Shown here piece by piece: positions 5,129 to 50,043 of a stretch of DNA of 64,000 nucleotides. Source of the DNA: a virus. The stretch lies in IMG/VR virus record IMGVR_UViG_3300036770_002165, positions 1 through 64,000 of that record. The stretch is one strand, 5' to 3'. Every line of letters starts with the position of its first letter. The first letter of the stretch is position 1. A program made the translations under genes and the position numbers. The notes under the pieces were generated by a model. It was not told the DNA's origin and searched no databases. It saw nothing but the letters and a program-made list of their open reading frames with translations.

Positions 5129-6694
5129 TCACCGTCCAAAGAATGGCGACTCGCTAACCGTTATAACTGGCATTGTATCAGCTACTGACAGTGAGCAGGC
5201 GATGGCCAGGGAGTCTGGGTAATCGTCGAAGGCCCCCTTCTCATCTGGGGCGGCAGCCAACAGATAAGGACCTCTGTACACTTTCTCGAGGTCGGACATC
5301 TGCTGGTTGAACTTTTTCCATACTTTGGTACGGCGCGCCTTTGAGTGGCCAGGAACTACGATCTGGTTTCTTTGGATCAGCTCGGTAAGATGCACCCAAC
5401 GTTCGTTCTGAGCTTTTGCGTCGGACGAAACCGCGGTGACTTCTATGTTAGGCATGAGGATCTGCAGGCGTTCCGCTACAGCTCCTCCAACACCTTGAGC
5501 GTCTACACCAATTCTGTACACATCGTAGTTACGTAGGAAATCAACAATTTCAAAGTACTGTTGCTCCCACTCGGTGTTGTTGATTTCTAACCAGTTAAGT
5601 ATGCGGTGCTCATAGAAACCAAACCCATCTGGATGATCCCAGTCCACCCATACCGCAGTAACTACGGTTGAGTCGTTGGTTCTAGCAACGTCGATTCCCG
5701 CCACAATCGGTGTTCTCCACCACTGCCGCACCAGGGGCATTGAGGGGTCGTACAGCTGCCCCAACTTCTCGTCGGTGACGAACATTCCCTTCTCCAGAAT
5801 CCACTTGTTGCAGTAGGACATTTGGAATTCATCAGAGTCTTCTCCTATGCGGACCTTCTCCTTGGCGATGAACTTCGCGTAGTTTGGGTTGTACTTGGAA
5901 GCCGTGCGCCAGTCATACTCAAAATGAGCTTGACGGTGGTTGCGCTTTGCGTTGATATCCCGCCGCTTGTTGTATTGGATCATCTTATAGAAATAAGACT
6001 TGTTACGGGTAGCTGTACCCGTGAGAGTTATCGAACCGTTATTGAACGCCAACATGGGCTTGATTGACTTAGTAATCATAAACTCATCGGCCTCCTGGGC
6101 CTCATCAATGAGCACAAAATGATACGTCTTAGATTCGATCTTGGCTTTTGGGTTACAGGTCTGCATACGGCACAGAGATCCTGAATGTTTAAGGCTGATG
6201 AGGCGACCCTTGCCACGTGACCCGCCAGCAGCGGGCTTGTCATCGATCTCTGGATCAAGAAGAAAGTCCATAGCATGATCGCTGGTGAGCTTGTTGACTA
6301 TACGGCTGAACACTGTGTCAGCCTGATCCTCAACGGGAGCAAACACCCCGCACCAGAATCCTTTTTCAAACTTACCCAGCCAGGTTGGGTAGACCTTGGC
6401 CAGCTTGGGCAGGATGACCATCATGGCTGCCATGACGTTGGAAAGTACCTCTGACTTTCCCGACTGACGCGTTGCCACCAGGGTCATTTCTTCACCATCG
6501 CCAAGAACTATAGATTCGATAATGCGGTAGGCAATGGGTATCTGATAGGGGAAGAGTTTTACATCACAAAACTCTTCAGTAAAAAGAATCAGTTTAAGTA
6601 CAAGGTGGTCTACGAACTCAGCGGATGTTTCGTCAAGCTCAGTTTCTGGATGCTCAGGCTCCAGCTGGTCCTCAAGAACTAGGTCGTCCATCAC
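5129..6694 (-). CDS. terL: Terminase large subunit
   Basis: Walker A TRQSGKS, Walker B VLIDEAQ, motif III TGT, nuclease acidic residues in AGIDVA, DSTV and FDDYPDS. Confidence 0.92.
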   Translation of the reverse strand: MMDDLVLEDQLEPEHPETELDETSAEFVDHLVLKLILFTEEFCDVKLFPYQIPIAYRIIESIVLGDGEEMTLVATRQSGKSEVLSNVMAAMMVILPKLAKVYPTWLGKFEKGFWCGVFAPVEDQADTVFSRIVNKLTSDHAMDFLLDPEIDDKPAAGGSRGKGRLISLKHSGSLCRMQTCNPKAKIESKTYHFVLIDEAQEADEFMITKSIKPMLAFNNGSITLTGTATRNKSYFYKMIQYNKRRDINAKRNHRQAHFEYDWRTASKYNPNYAKFIAKEKVRIGEDSDEFQMSYCNKWILEKGMFVTDEKLGQLYDPSMPLVRQWWRTPIVAGIDVARTNDSTVVTAVWVDWDHPDGFGFYEHRILNWLEINNTEWEQQYFEIVDFLRNYDVYRIGVDAQGVGGAVAERLQILMPNIEVTAVSSDAKAQNERWVHLTELIQRNQIVVPGHSKARRTKVWKKFNQQMSDLEKVYRGPYLLAAAPDEKGAFDDYPDSLAIACSLSVADTMPVITVSESPFFGR

Positions 6695-9695: not shown

Positions 9696-10097
9696 CTACG
9701 TAAGTAGTGACTTAATAGTTTCTACCCATTTTACAGTATCCTCATCCCACGAATAGACACCATCGTCGGTTGGGTACGGAAAAGGCGGGTCCCACAAACA
9801 AGTGTACTCATTTAACACCCACGATGGGTATGGCTTCGGTGGTATGAAGGCGTCCCTAATTTCATCGTAGGCGTAGCCAACCCCGGCGTAGTTCTTCCGT
9901 AGCGCCTTCGATTGATCCACTGACGGCTGACCGGTCGTTGAATCGTAATGTACCCCACCCCGGGTATTGTAGGAGGTCTGCACATAACGGTCGCCAGTAC
10001 GAGCACACAACTCGGCCTCTTTACCGTCATCTTCCTGACTACCGACCGTCACGAAAATAACGATGTTTTTTTCATCAAGTTTGGCAAAATGGCTCAC
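9696..10097 (-). CDS. Tail-associated hypothetical protein
   Basis: MSHFAKLDE..QTSYNT..RKNYAGVGY.YD..RDAFIPPKPYPSW family, next to a Gly-rich gene. Confidence 0.65.
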   Translation of the reverse strand: MSHFAKLDEKNIVIFVTVGSQEDDGKEAELCARTGDRYVQTSYNTRGGVHYDSTTGQPSVDQSKALRKNYAGVGYAYDEIRDAFIPPKPYPSWVLNEYTCLWDPPFPYPTDDGVYSWDEDTVKWVETIKSLLT

Positions 10098-11014
10098 GAG
10101 AAGGTCACCGTTTCACTTGTTGTTGAAGTTGCAGTAACAGTACTAATTTTAAACCCACCGCTAATTGCCGTAGATTGTGTTACGCCAGCGCTAAAGGTAG
10201 CTGTTCTAGTGGCGGGGTATTTGATGACCACAACGCCAGAACCACCATTACCACTTGTCCCGTCACCGGAGTCACTGAACCCACTTCCACCACCTCCTCC
10301 ACCCCTATTTGCCGCCCCATTACCTGCCGTCACAGACCCTTTGCTGCCATTACCCCCAACGCCACTTCCCCCTATACCAGCTACGCCGGTGGAGCCGGAA
10401 TAATTACCTCCCCCTCCCCCTCCAGCGTAAGGTAATGACGTTCCAGTTATGGAGTTAGACAGCCCAACACCGCCATTTCCACCAGAGGAGTTTGTACTAT
10501 TAACTGCATTACCACCTACACCACCCGCACCTCCACCGCCTCCCCCAGCGTATGTTGCCGGTCCCCCACTTCCGTTACCATTTCCTCCGGAGCTACCCTG
10601 CCCTGATGTTCCGCTGCCACCAGTTGACCCGGTATAAGCGCCCCCACCCCCGCTACCCCCCGAGGGGGCTGCTCCTGTTGGGTTAATGTTACTAGCACCA
10701 CCACCACCACCGGTAGATGTTATCGTGCTAAATGTAGAGTTAAGGCCATTAGTCCCAGAGAATGGGTAAGGACTTACTGACGAGGATATGCCTGCTCCTC
10801 CACCCCCTATAATCAATGGGTAAATTTCGTTTGTTTCTAGTTCTACCTGACCAGTGCGCATACCCCCGGCACCCCCACCACCTCCGTGACGCCTACCTCC
10901 ACCTCCCCCTCCGGCTACTACAAGGTATTCAACAATTAGGGTAAGTACCTCTGACGTGTCTCGATATACGCTTTGTGGTCCGTAATTCCCTCGTAAACTT
11001 CCCATCAAAGGCAT
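10094..11014 (-). CDS. Glycine-rich tail/adhesin protein
   Basis: EYLVVAGGGGGG...GGSGVVVIKY architecture. Confidence 0.7.
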   Translation of the reverse strand: MPLMGSLRGNYGPQSVYRDTSEVLTLIVEYLVVAGGGGGGRRHGGGGGAGGMRTGQVELETNEIYPLIIGGGGAGISSSVSPYPFSGTNGLNSTFSTITSTGGGGGASNINPTGAAPSGGSGGGGAYTGSTGGSGTSGQGSSGGNGNGSGGPATYAGGGGGGAGGVGGNAVNSTNSSGGNGGVGLSNSITGTSLPYAGGGGGGNYSGSTGVAGIGGSGVGGNGSKGSVTAGNGAANRGGGGGGSGFSDSGDGTSGNGGSGVVVIKYPATRTATFSAGVTQSTAISGGFKISTVTATSTTSETVTFS

Positions 11015-11060
11015 TTGTCTTAATCTCCCAGTATATTTTTAACTTTATTAAGTATAGTTC

Positions 11061-11444
11061 CTACTTAGTCACCATAGTTTTGGTATAAACCTCATCAACC
11101 CATAATAAATTATTTTGCAAAAAAATTCCCATGCTTTTGAGTAGTTTGTTAAGCTTAAGCTCTCCTTCTATTCCCCAAAACTCATGGGTTATTGACCAGC
11201 CATTCATCACAACGAAATAGTGCGCGTATGGGCACCACGCTGCGTAAACTCCGAGGGGACCTGAGGATTCGTATATTACCTCCCATATATCAACATCCTC
11301 AAATTTTATAGGCCTTTCTGACCCCCATACTGGATTAGGTGGCATATATTGATAAATTGAATTATAGTTCATCCAATTTTCATCAAATAGTTCCCCGTCA
11401 TGTATTTGTGAAAGGATATTATTAGTTGATTTCCAACGCGGCAT
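11061..11444 (-). CDS. Hypothetical protein (AT-rich)
   Basis: 127 aa ORF, visibly lower GC than neighbours. Confidence 0.55.
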   Translation of the reverse strand: MPRWKSTNNILSQIHDGELFDENWMNYNSIYQYMPPNPVWGSERPIKFEDVDIWEVIYESSGPLGVYAAWCPYAHYFVVMNGWSITHEFWGIEGELKLNKLLKSMGIFLQNNLLWVDEVYTKTMVTK

Positions 11445-11454
11445 AACATTATGC

Positions 11455-12441
11455 CTATGTCAAATACCTGATTATTACTATCCCTGAACCGCCATCTCCG
11501 CCTTTACCCGTAGCGTCACCATTAGATGAACCACCACCACCGCCACTACCAGTGTTAACAGTACCATTAGAGCCTTGAGTAGTCCCACCGTTGCCACCTA
11601 TACCAGATCCACCAGTACCATGATTTTTAACTGATGTACTAGTTGATTGCGAGTTACCATATGTAGAGCCTCCACCGCCAGCAGCATAAAATGTGGGTGA
11701 TCCAGAAATGCTCGACGATAGCCCGGCACCGCCATTACCACCACTAGGCTGCGCTCTAACATTACCGTTTTGACCTACTCCACCAGCACCGCCACCACCG
11801 CCAGCGCCAGCCCAAGCCCCAGACGTATGACCGTTTCCACCGGCGCTTCCTTGACCTGATGTTGCAGCTCCACCTGGATAGTTACCGCCAGCTGAGTTTT
11901 CTCCACCACCACCGCCAGAACCGCCAGAAGTACCACCACCAGCTGATACTGTTATTCCTTGAACGTTACTGGTAACACCAGGTGAACCACCACCACCACC
12001 ACCTATTGCTGTAAGTCCAAATGCTGAGCTTGATGACCCACGCTGTCCTAGGTAACCTGTTGAATTAGTAAAATTAAACTGTGTTTCCACAGCGCCAGTT
12101 CCAACGACTATTGTGTTGCTTTGGTTTGACGTGGATGTACTTCCTGTTAATAGACCACCACCGCCGCCACCACCTGCATGGCGTGAACCACCGCTTCCAC
12201 CGCCAGCAACTACCAAATATTCAATTGATAGAGAACTAAGAGACCCCAAAGTAAATGATGAAGATCCAGTGTTTGTAAAAGTGTGTATCCGGTAACCACC
12301 AGCAGTAGAGACGTCCCCCCCAGATGGAAGAATAAAACCAGGATTTTGACGTGAAGCTTCAGTCAGTTGACCACCATTGGAAACGCCTCTGTTTTCCGAC
12401 GTTGGGCCAAAAGTCCCCCGGACACTACTAATAAACGGCAT
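11455..12441 (-). CDS. Glycine-rich tail/adhesin protein, paralog of 10094-11014
   Basis: GYRIHTFT, EYLVVAGGG, GGSGIVIIRY. Confidence 0.7.
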   Translation of the reverse strand: MPFISSVRGTFGPTSENRGVSNGGQLTEASRQNPGFILPSGGDVSTAGGYRIHTFTNTGSSSFTLGSLSSLSIEYLVVAGGGSGGSRHAGGGGGGGLLTGSTSTSNQSNTIVVGTGAVETQFNFTNSTGYLGQRGSSSSAFGLTAIGGGGGGSPGVTSNVQGITVSAGGGTSGGSGGGGGENSAGGNYPGGAATSGQGSAGGNGHTSGAWAGAGGGGGAGGVGQNGNVRAQPSGGNGGAGLSSSISGSPTFYAAGGGGSTYGNSQSTSTSVKNHGTGGSGIGGNGGTTQGSNGTVNTGSGGGGGSSNGDATGKGGDGGSGIVIIRYLT

Positions 12442-23399: not shown

Positions 23400-23415
23400 G
23401 TAACGATTATACCAG

Positions 23416-23489
23416 TGCCGGGTACGGGAGTTGAACCCGTCTACGAGTGTTTATAAGACACCTTGCGTCAACCGGACGCATCACCCGGC
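23416..23489 (-). tRNA. tRNA-Ile, anticodon UAU
   Basis: Cloverleaf: acceptor GCCGGGT/ACCCGGC+A, D stem GCGTC/GACGC, anticodon arm GGTGT-CTTATAA-ACACT, T arm ACGGG-TTCAACT-CCCGT; CCA not encoded. Confidence 0.85.
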
Positions 23490-24857: not shown

Positions 24858-26501
24858 TCAGATTTTGCGAGATTCTGATGGTGAGTGGTGCGCCTCTACC
24901 TCTTCAGCGTGCTCAACGCTGTCATAAACACGCAAAATCCAGATGCAAGGATCGTTTTCCCAGAATTCGTCGTACTCTTTAGCCGACATTGGGACTCCAT
25001 CGTGGGTTTCACACACCATTGGGCCCACAAAACCGTTGTCAATCCCGTACTTTAACCACTCATTGAACTCCATTTTGAGTCCCCTCCTATTGTCCCGTGC
25101 AGCAACTCCCACTGCCGTGGATGAAACTACCCGATTTTGTGACCGTGTTGCAACCAGGTCCACAACCTTGGATGCTTGATTCGGGAATAGTAACGTCTCC
25201 CTCCTCATTCATCACGGTATATGGGTTGACCGCGCTCTGTGGCATATAGAAACCGGGCTGGGCCTTGGTCTTCTTTTGACGCTTTGCCAGCTTCTTACGG
25301 TACATCTGGGCTTCGTAATCCTCTTTAGAGGAGTACTCGCCGTCATCCTCTCCGTAGCCACGAACAAAGTAGGCCATGATCAGTAGTCGCCCATCCGCTT
25401 CCCAAGCTTTGAGACGCCGTAGCCAATGGCCGCACCGGCGATGGCCCCCTTGATGCCGCCGGGAACCTTGTCTGCGTCGGCCAAAACCCCAAAGCTGGGG
25501 TTGTCACCAGTACCTAAGCCAGTACCAAGGGCGTAACCGGCAGCTCCGGCGCTTAAGGCAAGCACGTTGCGGTCGAGAGTTTCCTTAACACCCTGACGGC
25601 TGATGATCGATGGCACTGTTGGCTTACGCGTTACAAGGTGCTGGACATACGGATCCATACTGCGCTTTCCAGCATGAACAGCTCGGCCTCGGTGATCTTG
25701 TGCCATATTTGCTCCTTCGACTCTTCTATTGTAGCCAAAACCGCGACCCCAAATTTTTCACGCCACCTAGAAATACCTAACTACCAGGTGATACATGTTA
25801 TTTATTGGGGTTTTCAAGGATTGTATCATTCATGATAGCAATCCATAGTTACGGTTAGTGAACTATAACGTCAGCTTACCTTTTCCTAGGTAACGGCTTA
25901 TCCAAATGACGGAATAAGTCGACCTTAGCAGGCATAAACCTGAACAAATGCAGTGTCAGATATACCCAGAATCCTAATACCGCCCAACGGCCTGTCTTAT
26001 GCCGTGACCCCCTGTGGAAAGTAGACGACAGTGTGGATAACCCTGTCGCCATGGCTAGGACATCATAAACCAACACATACAGGGCAATACCGCCCCACGC
26101 CATCGGCCCAGCCTTAGATCTAAGCGTCATGTGTCCTTAGAGGGTGTCCCTGAGGGAGCATCACGCGCTTCTTGCCAGCTTTGGTACCGGCTACGTGTTC
26201 GACAGCACCAGTCTGTGGATTAACACGGGTACGCCCACCGGCGCTACCGCTACCTTTACGCTTGCTCTTCCCCATGAGCCCCCCCCTAAATATCCCAACT
26301 ACCAGCGTCCATACGGGAACGCACCGCATCACGAATACCTTGTTTTTCAGTAATAAGCTTCTGCTTCTTGGCACGCCAGGTAGGTGGCGATTCAGAGTGG
26401 ATAACACCACCATAGCGCGACTCAAGGTTATTAATACGCTTATTAACAGACCCAAGGGCTTTATAGAGCTGTTGGTTGTTCAAAGCTTCGTATGCTGCCA
26501 T
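24858..26501 (-). CDS. Six small hypothetical genes (24858-25073, 25087-25377, 25380-25706, 25876-26130, 26120-26275, 26286-26501)
   Basis: Co-oriented small ORFs; 25876-26130 has two TM helices; 26501 start is leaderless (TGGTAATCT + 6 nt + ATG). Confidence 0.5.
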
Positions 26502-26514
26502 AACCCAAGATTAC

Positions 26515-26570
26515 CAGAATAGGGCTACTTACGGTAGCGCGCGTTTACTTCGTAGTTCAGAATAGGGCTA
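26515..26570. repeat. 13-bp direct repeat CAGAATAGGGCTA x2
   Basis: Copies at 26515-26527 and 26558-26570. Confidence 0.7.
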
Positions 26571-26859
26571 TTCAGCAGTTGAGCGTTCCTTGGGGCCCGG
26601 GTACAGCCCCCCCTTCGGGTGGGTGCGCCTCACCTAATGATAGGGGTACACACCGGTAGCCTAGCCGTGTGCGTGTGCCTATCCTAACATTAGTCCCTGT
26701 CCCTATGTGGGACTGTGGTGGTCGAGCGCCCATCGAATAGTAGTGGCCTTCGTCCTAACGGAGTTCTAAGAGGCGCGCCCCTAGGCAGGGCGTGTGACCT
26801 ACCCACCACAGGAGAGACACAGGACAGGGCGGGGTATCCCCACTTGGGAGTCCCCCAGG

Positions 26860-26954
26860 TTATCCACAGCCCTTGTGGAAGTTATCCACAGGCTACTCAT
26901 AGTTATCCACAGGCCTAGACCTGGGCCTATGAGTTATCCACAGGGTTATCCACA
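26860..26954 (+). promoter_or_regulatory. Cluster of five perfect co-oriented DnaA boxes (TTATCCACA)
   Basis: Starts at 26860, 26882, 26903, 26934, 26946 in the divergent intergenic region. Confidence 0.85.
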
Positions 26955-27037
26955 GGGCTGTGGCCAGGCCTAACATTAGGTAACGGTCATCGGGAGTTGC
27001 TATCGCCAACCCAACCCATGTTCTAAGGAGGAACATC

Positions 27038-27610
27038 ATGGCAACAGCAACACTCACCCCGAAGTACCAGCCGGTGCTCAACCTCGAAGCAAGCGAGGCG
27101 ATCAAGGTCGTCTTTGCCGCCGCTGACAAGGTCAAGGCACTCAAGGCCAGCCTGCGCGAGGGCATCACGGCGTACAACCAGACTCTGTCTGTGTTGGGTT
27201 CCGTGTATCTCGCATCGGATCTGGCCAAGGCAGACGGTATGTCGGCCAAGTCCATCGCCGCCCTTGCTGGGCGCGACGATGAGCAGCAGACACGTTACTA
27301 CCTGCGTAACGGCTGGATTCAGGCCCGTTTGGTCAACGATGGAAAGACCGCCCCGGCGGCTATCCAGACGCAGATCAACAAGGTTGCCCAGCAGGGCAAC
27401 GGTCTGACTCTCAGCCGTGTCGATGAGATCATCAAGGATCTGGTCGACAAGGGTGGTTCGTGGGCCGACTTCGTCTCTGCCGTCAAGGCTGAGACCGACA
27501 AGGTCAATGCCAAGGTCGAGCGCGCCCTCAATGCGCTCGAAGACGCCGACAGCCTGGACGCGGGCCAACTCGCCCGTCTCCAGTTGTTGGTCAGCAAGCA
27601 CACCAAGTAA
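27038..27610 (+). CDS. First early gene, helical Ala/Lys-rich hypothetical protein
   Basis: 190 aa, strong RBS TAAGGAGG, strongly C/G-ending codons. Confidence 0.8.
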   Translation: MATATLTPKYQPVLNLEASEAIKVVFAAADKVKALKASLREGITAYNQTLSVLGSVYLASDLAKADGMSAKSIAALAGRDDEQQTRYYLRNGWIQARLVNDGKTAPAAIQTQINKVAQQGNGLTLSRVDEIIKDLVDKGGSWADFVSAVKAETDKVNAKVERALNALEDADSLDAGQLARLQLLVSKHTK

Positions 27611-28779: not shown

Positions 28780-28854
28780 GCCCCCGTACTCAGATGGGAG
28801 TGACGTCTAATCATTAGACGTTTGTAGGTTCGAATCCTACCGAGGGTGCGACCA
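28780..28854 (+). ncRNA. tRNA-like element with aberrant anticodon arm
   Basis: Perfect T arm GTAGG-TTCGAAT-CCTAC, acceptor 6/7 paired, short D arm CTC/GAG, 9-bp arm GACGTCTAA-TCA-TTAGACGTT. Confidence 0.6.
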
Positions 28855-46964: not shown

Positions 46965-47472
46965 TGTTTTTGATCATTCTTTCTACTGCTGACGTGGTGG
47001 TGTCCAGGTAGGGGGCCAAATCCGCAGCGAGAGATACGGGTTTAGGCTTACCCTCCATTCGGCGCATCCTTTGGATGTCTGTAATCAAATACCTAACTGG
47101 TATACGTGAATCTTGCTCTAGATTGTCAAGCGACATCTTGCGCCTATCGCGCGAAGTCTGCCCGCCGTACATCCCATAGGTAAGCCCGTTATCCAGGGCA
47201 AACGCTAGGCACTCTTTCCTAACTGAACACTTAGCGCACAGCAACCGAGCGCGGCTAAGCATGTTGCCCTGAAGGTTGGGGTTTGTTGAGTCCTTAGTTC
47301 TTTCTCTGGCCTTCTTCTGGGCCACTGTCATCCCGCTTAGATCTTCTTTTTCGGGAAAGAACACTCTGGTGTCTTTACCCTTGCAGGCTGCCTTGGAGCG
47401 CCATGCGTCATCCCCCCAGTTATTTAGTGATGGTAGTTGTACTTGTCTTTGTAGGTCTAGTTCTAGTTCCAT
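46942..47472 (-). CDS. whiB: WhiB-family transcription factor 1
   Basis: W...AAC...FFP, CAKCSVRKEC, GMYGG. Confidence 0.9.
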   Translation of the reverse strand: MELELDLQRQVQLPSLNNWGDDAWRSKAACKGKDTRVFFPEKEDLSGMTVAQKKARERTKDSTNPNLQGNMLSRARLLCAKCSVRKECLAFALDNGLTYGMYGGQTSRDRRKMSLDNLEQDSRIPVRYLITDIQRMRRMEGKPKPVSLAADLAPYLDTTTSAVERMIKNNALPEFI

Positions 47473-49668: not shown

Positions 49669-50043
49669 TCATCCACCAATTAGGGTAAAGAGCAGGGCTT
49701 TTACGTCGAACTCGACGCCTTGAGCCGGGAGTAGAGACAGGTCCGCGCGATTCGGGATGCGTACGTTGGCCTCTCGGCACGGGGCACACCGGCAACCTTT
49801 TCGGTATGCCTCAACAGTACCGCACTGAAGCTTTACTGTTCCGCGACGTTCTTGCGGGGTCAACCCACCCCACATACCCCAGGTTTCCGACTTACCTGCC
49901 TCAAGACATTGCGCCCATACCGGACAGCGGTGGCACGCCAGCTTGGCAATGGTGTAGTACTCGTTGGGTGAGGACGACTCAAGGGGGGGATACCACAGGT
50001 CGGCGTTCTTGTGCCGACAGAGCGCGTCCCGCATCCACTCCAT
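49669..50043 (-). CDS. whiB: WhiB-family transcription factor 2 with C-terminal GCRCxxC motif
   Basis: WMRDALC, CHRCPVWAQC, GMWGGLTPQER. Confidence 0.9.
   Translation of the reverse strand: MEWMRDALCRHKNADLWYPPLESSSPNEYYTIAKLACHRCPVWAQCLEAGKSETWGMWGGLTPQERRGTVKLQCGTVEAYRKGCRCAPCREANVRIPNRADLSLLPAQGVEFDVKALLFTLIGG

Follow-up and report, generated by a model that had tools for sequence, protein, structure and literature searches.

Background

Almost all bacteria rely on DnaA as master initiator and as a global regulator, and DnaA boxes lying away from the replication origin have been known in phage T5 since 1987. T5-like phages have about eight of them in the non-coding part of the first-step-transfer DNA, arranged in pairs with a 3-bp gap (bioRxiv 10.1101/866236), and a paper on BF23 states that experimental studies of the role of the boxes are lacking (PMC10644984); the other literature on phage DnaA boxes consists of Ori-Finder predictions only. 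The T5 record has two perfect boxes in the annotated divergent pre-early promoter gap (6013-6410) and two pairs in the injection stop signal, and three perfect boxes plus variants are found in inverted-repeat modules (IRC/IRD) inside the terminal repeat that enters first. A second precedent is lambda, which has an O-type initiator with iterons inside the O gene and uses the host DnaA as a transcription factor, not as an initiator. The action of DnaA on lambda pR and the transcriptional activation of ori-lambda are cited in PMC8477408 (ref. 49 there). HTVC010P-type pelagiphages encode a DnaA domain IV protein, unlike the phage described here. Iteron replicons (P1 oriR, F, pSC101 and RK2) hold DnaA boxes, iterons and an AT-rich region within ~250 bp beside the rep gene. 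On bacterial chromosomes, box clusters outside the origin are represented by datA of E. coli and the DnaA-box clusters (DBCs) of B. subtilis (PMC3245932, PMC4585315).

Here we describe an array of five DnaA boxes in an uncultured virus of ~96 kb. The window, that is the whole stretch of DNA that was analysed, comprises positions 1-64,000 of the 95,597-bp IMG/VR virus record IMGVR_UViG_3300036770_002165. The array is a further case of the known but unexplained phage DnaA-box type for which T5 is the precedent. As in T5 and BF23, a lytic phage that brings its own replication machinery and has its origin at another place carries boxes in non-coding control DNA that are kept across relatives, and as in T5, there are box pairs with a 3-bp gap (12 nt start to start). 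Unlike T5, this phage has five perfect co-oriented boxes and a probable actinobacterial host, and no inverted repeats comparable to those of T5 were found around the array. With lambda it shares an O-type initiator with iterons in its gene, the use of DnaA being predicted here; the lambda sites, however, are few, weak and just downstream of pR near the origin, whereas the five sites here are consensus boxes at a distance of 46 kb from the origin. Like datA and the DBCs, the array has about five high-affinity boxes outside an origin and no unwinding element, but those clusters are chromosomal and act on the initiation timing of their own cell, and datA depends on an IHF site and a set arrangement of its boxes; here, a conserved palindromic motif lies between boxes 3 and 4. 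The iteron replicons resemble it in placing host DnaA boxes beside repeated sites for another candidate DNA-binding factor, although in this phage 46 kb separate the array from the iterons and the initiator gene, and the motif next to the boxes shows no covariation with the initiator. We consider this a cleaner case than T5: the sites are five and all consensus, the lambda-type origin is separate, the relatives offer 2 to 11 sites for comparison and the host is probably a freshwater actinobacterium, so that gene control, decoy and second origin become directly testable alternatives in this phage.

A phased array of five perfect boxes

The exact 9-mer TTATCCACA occurs five times on the + strand within 95 bp, with start-to-start offsets of 22, 21, 31 and 12. 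The boxes, their setting and the only other exact copy in the genome are:

26502..27037, no strand: gene-free divergent control gap of 536 bp, the largest non-coding stretch of the genome (ORF lists and gap inventory)
26286..26501, - strand: first leftward gene, 71 aa, no family match, TAATCT 6 nt before the ATG
26860..26868, + strand: DnaA box 1 (GGTTATCCACAGC), exact match, no counterpart in the relative L154
26882..26890, + strand: DnaA box 2 (AGTTATCCACAGG), exact match, no counterpart in L154
26903..26911, + strand: DnaA box 3, exact match, orthologous to the L154 box at 718
26934..26942, + strand: DnaA box 4, first of a tandem pair with a 3-bp gap, exact match, orthologous to the L154 box at 748
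26946..26954, + strand: DnaA box 5, second of the tandem pair, exact match, orthologous to the L154 box at 760
27038..27610, + strand: first rightward gene, 190 aa, all-helical, RBS AAGGAGG, 84 nt after box 5
26032..26040, - strand: sixth perfect box, inverted, exact match, within the leftward gene 25876-26130

Each of the five can be read as an 11-mer unit, GTTATCCACAG, with a G before and a G after the box, and a twelfth G is present in 4/5 copies. Against ~0.7 exact boxes expected by chance in the whole 95,597-bp genome there are 6, and the single copy outside the array is 830 bp away. That copy belongs to a - strand series inside the leftward genes with a spacing of exactly 182 nt (26032, perfect; 26214 and 26396, one mismatch each), which faces the + strand array. 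Taking 10.5 bp per turn, the array is helically phased with a circular resultant of 0.92, which 0.19% of random spacings reach (P ~0.002), and all five boxes fall on one helix face within 0.2 turn. No weak sites (<=2 mismatches) are interleaved among the five boxes, and the only such site in the gap, GTATCCCCA at 26834, is out of phase. Since 50-nt windows have 48-64% G+C, there is no AT-rich unwinding element beside the array, and a reading of the sequence after box 5 gave no run of >=3 DnaA-trio motifs. A sequence-only reading made earlier had reported five perfect co-oriented boxes with these offsets, a G on both sides of each, a rough helical phasing and the lack of an AT-rich element; all the positions were exact and on the + strand, the flanking Gs were present in 5/5 boxes, and the values for phasing and composition given above bear out the other two points.

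Identity of the boxes and the probable host

The unit GTTATCCACAG(G) is the same as in R1 (GTTATCCACAGGG) and R4 (AGTTATCCACAG), the two strongest boxes of E. coli oriC, and the tandem pair made of boxes 4 and 5, TTATCCACAGGGTTATCCACA, is identical to a pair in the genome (MAG) of a freshwater Aquiluna, where it sits in the dnaA-dnaN gap beside more boxes and an AT-rich stretch, i.e. in oriC. This tandem pair is present in >120 bacterial species from many phyla. The likeness of the array to a bacterial oriC is in these identical flanked boxes and, for Aquiluna, in the identical tandem pair; an oriC, however, contains weak sites among the strong ones and, beside dnaA/dnaN, an AT-rich DUE, none of which the array has. 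Two WhiB-family genes are found on the - strand (47134-47403 and 49843-50037), and as such genes are to our knowledge confined to actinobacteria and their phages, the host is probably an actinobacterium. A search of host genomes with the WhiB protein as query gave no match, and no DnaA DNA-binding domain (domain IV) encoded by the phage was found. Because the flanked unit is that of oriC boxes and the WhiB genes indicate an actinobacterial host, the host DnaA very probably reads the GTTATCCACAG boxes, and we have high confidence that the five would serve as DnaA docking sites. The exact 9-mers, with flanks as in E. coli R1/R4 and the Aquiluna oriC, agree with the earlier description of consensus high-affinity boxes, in the sense of predicted binding.

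A lambda-type origin 46 kb from the array

With terminase, portal, capsid, sheath and baseplate genes, the phage is a myovirus. Neither an integrase nor a ParB was found in it, which makes a P1-type plasmid-prophage origin unlikely, and the phage collection gave no match in megablast and blastn searches. The minus strand at 63-73 kb encodes a family-A polymerase, confirming the earlier claim that the phage has a polymerase of its own, as well as an SNF2 helicase, a DnaG-like primase, a DnaB-like helicase, a DnaC/IstB-like loader and a 419-aa initiator:

Genome 72037-73296 (L125:8037-9296), - strand, outside the window: O-like initiator gene, 419 aa, matched by four PHROG initiator families

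The similarity to these four O-like families is weak (E 5e-6 to 6e-5). Three palindromic iterons of the TTGAATAGGTCACCGGTGACCTATTG type, 22-26 nt long, lie inside the initiator gene (genome 72882-72975) and are followed by an AT-rich patch, and the order of genes from the initiator is the DnaC-like loader, a 146-aa protein of no assigned function, DnaB and primase. In G001, a related genome (93 kb, 99% complete), the initiator is 44% identical and its gene contains four palindromic iterons in the corresponding position (L153:2321-2421), and the layout of initiator, loader, DnaB and primase is kept. Judged from these features, and with the weak PHROG similarity of the initiator in mind, the phage has a complete, conserved lambda-type origin module at ~72.9 kb, with the array 46 kb from it. 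The sequence-only reading had offered a host-DnaA-dependent phage origin as one role for the array. That claim is weakened, at least for the main origin, by the phage's own O-like initiator with its iterons and its loader, helicase and primase, together with the lack of an unwinding element, of trios and of weak sites at the array and a box layout that is not conserved. GC skew, which the same reading had proposed as a check, follows gene orientation only and is uninformative on where replication starts.

The divergent gap and its repeated motif

The gap had earlier been described as a divergent late/early gap. It is divergent, but its leftward arm opens with small genes of no recognised family, and recognisable late genes are not among them; the first of them is probably leaderless, judging by the TAATCT close to its start. 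The rightward block is 19 kb long and holds AAA_5 ATPases and an SNF2 helicase. Its first product, the 190-aa protein, has 11 homologues, all unnamed, and an AF2 model with a pLDDT of 85.5, for which there were no significant fold matches (best Z 5.4 or less, meaningless for a helical bundle). A search of viral contigs with this protein alone gave no relative, and the alignment of its homologues, used as query, found one viral locus and two metagenome loci. The gap also contains a repeated motif and a palindrome:

26517..26530, + strand: motif copy 1 (GAATAGGGCTACTT), beside the start of the leftward gene, its 43-nt spacing to copy 2 kept in L147 and L154
26560..26573, + strand: motif copy 2 (palindrome GAATAGGGCTATTC), kept in L147, L154, L155 and L112
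26914..26933, + strand: degenerate third AATAGG(G/T)CTAT copy between boxes 3 and 4, aligning with CTAGTAATAGGTCTATGAG of L154 and with the motif in L147 and L155
26969..26981, no strand: palindrome CCTAACATTAGG between the array and the RBS, with a second copy at 26683-26693

Copies 1 and 2 of the motif (26517 and 26560) are 43 nt apart, and the unit of box, motif and box spans 30-31 nt in the window, L154 and L147. The heptamer GAATAGG occurs six times in the genome, five of these being the two gap motifs and the three iterons of the origin. At the place of CCTAACATTAGG, L154 and L155 have other palindromes, CTAGTACTAG and CCTAACGGTTAGG respectively; these short palindromes look like phage-specific operators. 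A sigma-70 promoter scan of the gap found none, actinobacterial promoters being hard to call, and a candidate rightward promoter, TTGCTA-N17-GTTCTA, was rejected as its spacing is not kept in L154. A structured RNA at 26560-26860 is not supported, since the RNA folds of either strand were not significant (z -1.2 and -1.0) and Rfam gave no match across the whole genome.

The motif occurs elsewhere too. In box-bearing viral contigs, AATAGG(G/T)CTAT gave 11 matches in ~1 Mb vs ~4 expected, and it is found, often extended as a palindrome, in L024, L059, L072, L116, L120 and L121. An AATAGG-type motif follows an extended -10 (TGCTATAAT) in L059, L072 and L121 and forms a 13-nt tandem array in L024.

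Conservation of the array in relatives

Four relatives, L112, L147, L154 and L155, each from a different metagenome, have a recognisable homologous gap with the same motif, and boxes are present in that gap in 4/4, with 2 to 11 each. This answers in the affirmative the question, raised by the sequence-only reading, of whether the cluster is at the same position in related phages. In L154, four + strand boxes (spacings 12, 30, 12) lie ~85 nt before the same RBS and are accompanied by one inverted box; L147 and L155 have two boxes each, between motif copies 1 and 2; and L112/G001 has a 1.3-kb divergent gap in which 660 bp hold 11/12 perfect boxes. When the window is aligned to L154, three boxes and the intervening motif are kept letter for letter and the rest of the gap has diverged, and one L154 box has only a decayed counterpart in the window. 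Among the relatives, the boxes vary in how many there are, where they lie and which way they point, and they occur on either side of the gap. The retention of three boxes and the motif in a gap that has otherwise diverged argues that the boxes are under selection and that their number and place turn over, so that, as far as these alignments go, boxes would be gained and lost over time. L154 and L155 share the 190-aa protein together with the array, and L147 and L112 have boxes without a homologue of it. Among 25 phages that share the AAA_5 ATPase, most have no boxes within 10 kb, but this set is not a fair conservation test, because its members, except L147, are distant mosaics without a homologous gap.

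DnaA-box arrays in other viral contigs

We searched viral contigs for three co-oriented perfect boxes, a pattern for which essentially no chance match is expected, and at least 120 contigs matched (IMG/VR loci L005-L124). Among the matches listed, same-strand spacings peak at 11-12, 21-22, 33 and 44-45 nt, i.e. with a periodicity of ~11 nt, in 102/120 clusters the boxes all point the same way, and of the 78 loci flanked by genes on either side, 34 are divergent gaps. The commonest neighbours among those matches are large-terminase families and the actinophage family GP88 (PF17338), and in many of the small phages listed the cluster lies between the large terminase gene and the GP88-family gene. 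A Pfam scan of 150 flanking ORFs of the matches listed gave no DnaA or DnaN, and replication genes of any kind were almost absent; with no DnaA/DnaN nearby, the clusters are features of the phages and not oriC contamination. The survey thus suggests that DnaA-box arrays are common in uncultured phages and enriched at divergent gaps and beside terminase genes. A further box-rich phage is G003 (the 129-kb contig of L065), with 31 perfect boxes in at least five clusters, one of them with 18, and some of its box pairs come directly after a repeated promoter-like motif (GTGTAACAATTACAAC).

Possible roles of the array

The reading that best fits the placement of the array is absent from the sequence-only reading, and we put it forward tentatively as the leading candidate: the array may be the seat of a cis-acting complex of host DnaA on the early control hub, and not the main replication origin of the phage, with both the occupancy by DnaA and the effect on transcription being inferred. 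Once the phage DNA has entered, all five consensus sites would be filled by host DnaA, whether in its ATP or its ADP form; since the sites are co-oriented and on one helix face, the bound proteins would form a short phased array. This array would flank the AATAGGnCTAT palindrome, ~90-180 bp upstream of the first rightward early gene, and the nucleoprotein complex could then act in cis on the divergent early hub, gating or tuning early transcription and thereby tying the start of infection to the DnaA status of the host. The parallels would be the action of DnaA on lambda pR and, in T5, the boxes located between the divergent pre-early promoters. In favor of DnaA acting on the hub are the position of the array in the master divergent gap in 4/4 relatives with a recognisable gap, the phage's own lambda-type origin elsewhere, an array that is devoid of an AT-rich element, trios and weak sites, the three boxes and the motif kept in L154, and the divergent gaps that make up 34 of the 78 gene-flanked loci among the survey matches listed. 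Against it, the sigma-70 scan found no promoter in the gap, known DnaA-regulated promoters usually need fewer than five consensus sites, the variable number, position and orientation of the boxes (2 to 11) fits a dosage role better than a fixed promoter geometry, and the placement in the largest non-coding stretch could reflect available space alone.

It can also be hypothesized, though we find it doubtful, that the gap is a second or early origin dependent on DnaA, where the host protein would open DNA at or close to the gap and load a helicase, either ahead of the O-type origin or alongside it. Initiation is the canonical job of DnaA, the co-oriented and phased boxes are like one half of an oriC, and the inverted boxes (26032, 26214 and 26396) point towards the array in the way that R1 and R4 of E. 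coli oriC point towards each other, the setting being a divergent transcription hub; moreover, the ~11-nt box periodicity among the survey matches listed is typical of DnaA oligomers. The AATAGG-type motifs may then be bound by the initiator, much as Rep sites accompany DnaA boxes in iteron plasmids, and the AATAGG core is indeed common to the gap motif and the iterons of the origin (GAATAGG, 5/6 genome copies). However, the gap motif is invariant across phages with differing iterons, so it does not covary with the initiator, and the positions and orientations of the boxes differ among the relatives. A complete conserved lambda-type origin 46 kb away, and the lack of an AT-rich DUE, a DnaA-trio array and low-affinity sites here, also stand against such an origin.

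Two further readings seem unlikely, each to a similar degree. The first, likewise offered by the sequence-only reading as a datA-like sink, is that the array, multiplying with the phage genomes, is a sink that titrates host DnaA and halts new initiation on the host chromosome, which would be the action of E. coli datA or the B. subtilis DnaA-box clusters exerted in trans from a phage. In E. coli, B. subtilis and Streptomyces, initiation is delayed or blocked when DnaA boxes are present in extra copies, and five perfect consensus sites without the weak sites specific to ATP-DnaA are what plain occupancy predicts. The freedom with which box number varies among the relatives (2-11, and up to 31 in G003), the missing unwinding element and an O-type origin that does not itself need DnaA are also as a sink would have it. 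Two boxes, as in L147 and L155, would nevertheless make a weak sink, and any of the ~20 other intergenic gaps of the genome (gap inventory) would serve, yet in the relatives the boxes are always at the control hub beside the same motif; the benefit to a lytic phage is only presumed. The second is that the gap is a two-factor docking site, on which DnaA and a reader of AATAGG(G/T)CTAT co-assemble at the unit of box, motif and box, and that the arrays in at least 120 viral contigs represent a general way to read or disarm the host initiator. The reader could be the O-like initiator, whose iterons share the AATAGG half-site, or a host protein, and the unit would be either a second origin or a switch, of the handcuffing or licensing type, by which the O-type origin is tied to the DnaA status of the host.

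Much less probable is an entry or tether signal as proposed for T5, in which membrane-associated DnaA catches the array during or after injection and pauses entry or anchors the genome. The T5 iss region does have DnaA-box pairs with the same 3-bp gap, and the clusters among the survey matches listed often adjoin the large terminase gene, near likely genome ends. In this phage, by contrast, the terminase gene (5129-6694) is 20 kb from the array, and the 67-bp end repeat ('DTR') of the record looks like the overlap of a circular assembly and probably does not mark the physical ends; the T5 model is also itself hypothetical. We regard it as highly improbable that the boxes are operators for a phage-encoded protein and mere look-alikes of DnaA boxes. 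The repeat unit of 11-12 nt, which is longer than the 9-mer, and the helical 190-aa protein encoded directly downstream, which co-occurs with the array in L154 and L155, would suit an operator, but the extra flanks are the same as those of chromosomal oriC boxes, L147 and L112 have boxes without a homologue of that protein, the phage is without a DnaA domain IV, and the same 9-mer recurs as arrays in at least 120 unrelated viral contigs. Finally, the chimeric host oriC fragment named by the sequence-only reading, whether an assembly artefact or a fresh capture, was ruled out and has practically no probability left: the 23-nt AGTTATCCACAGGGTTATCCACA is identical to the Aquiluna oriC, but the match is limited to those 23 nt, phage genes are on both flanks, homologous box-bearing gaps are found in four independent metagenome assemblies, and the 150 flanking ORFs of the survey matches listed include no DnaA or DnaN.

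Other features of the genome

A Dps-like gene and three genes for small basic proteins make up a short + strand island (genome 73461-74632; L125:9461-10632). Its 96-aa protein is 52-85% identical to the products of genes in eight box-bearing freshwater viral contigs (L013, L030, L031, L035, L075, L085, L089 and L097). ARAGORN predicted a tRNA-Ile (TAT) at 23415-23489 and an odd tRNA-SeC-like gene (anticodon TCA) at 28780-28849, the latter in the early region. Lastly, the stretch 10001-12000 has a strong negative GC skew (-0.28) and many short tandem repeats of the CCA/ACC type, which suggests a collagen-like or repeat-rich structural gene.
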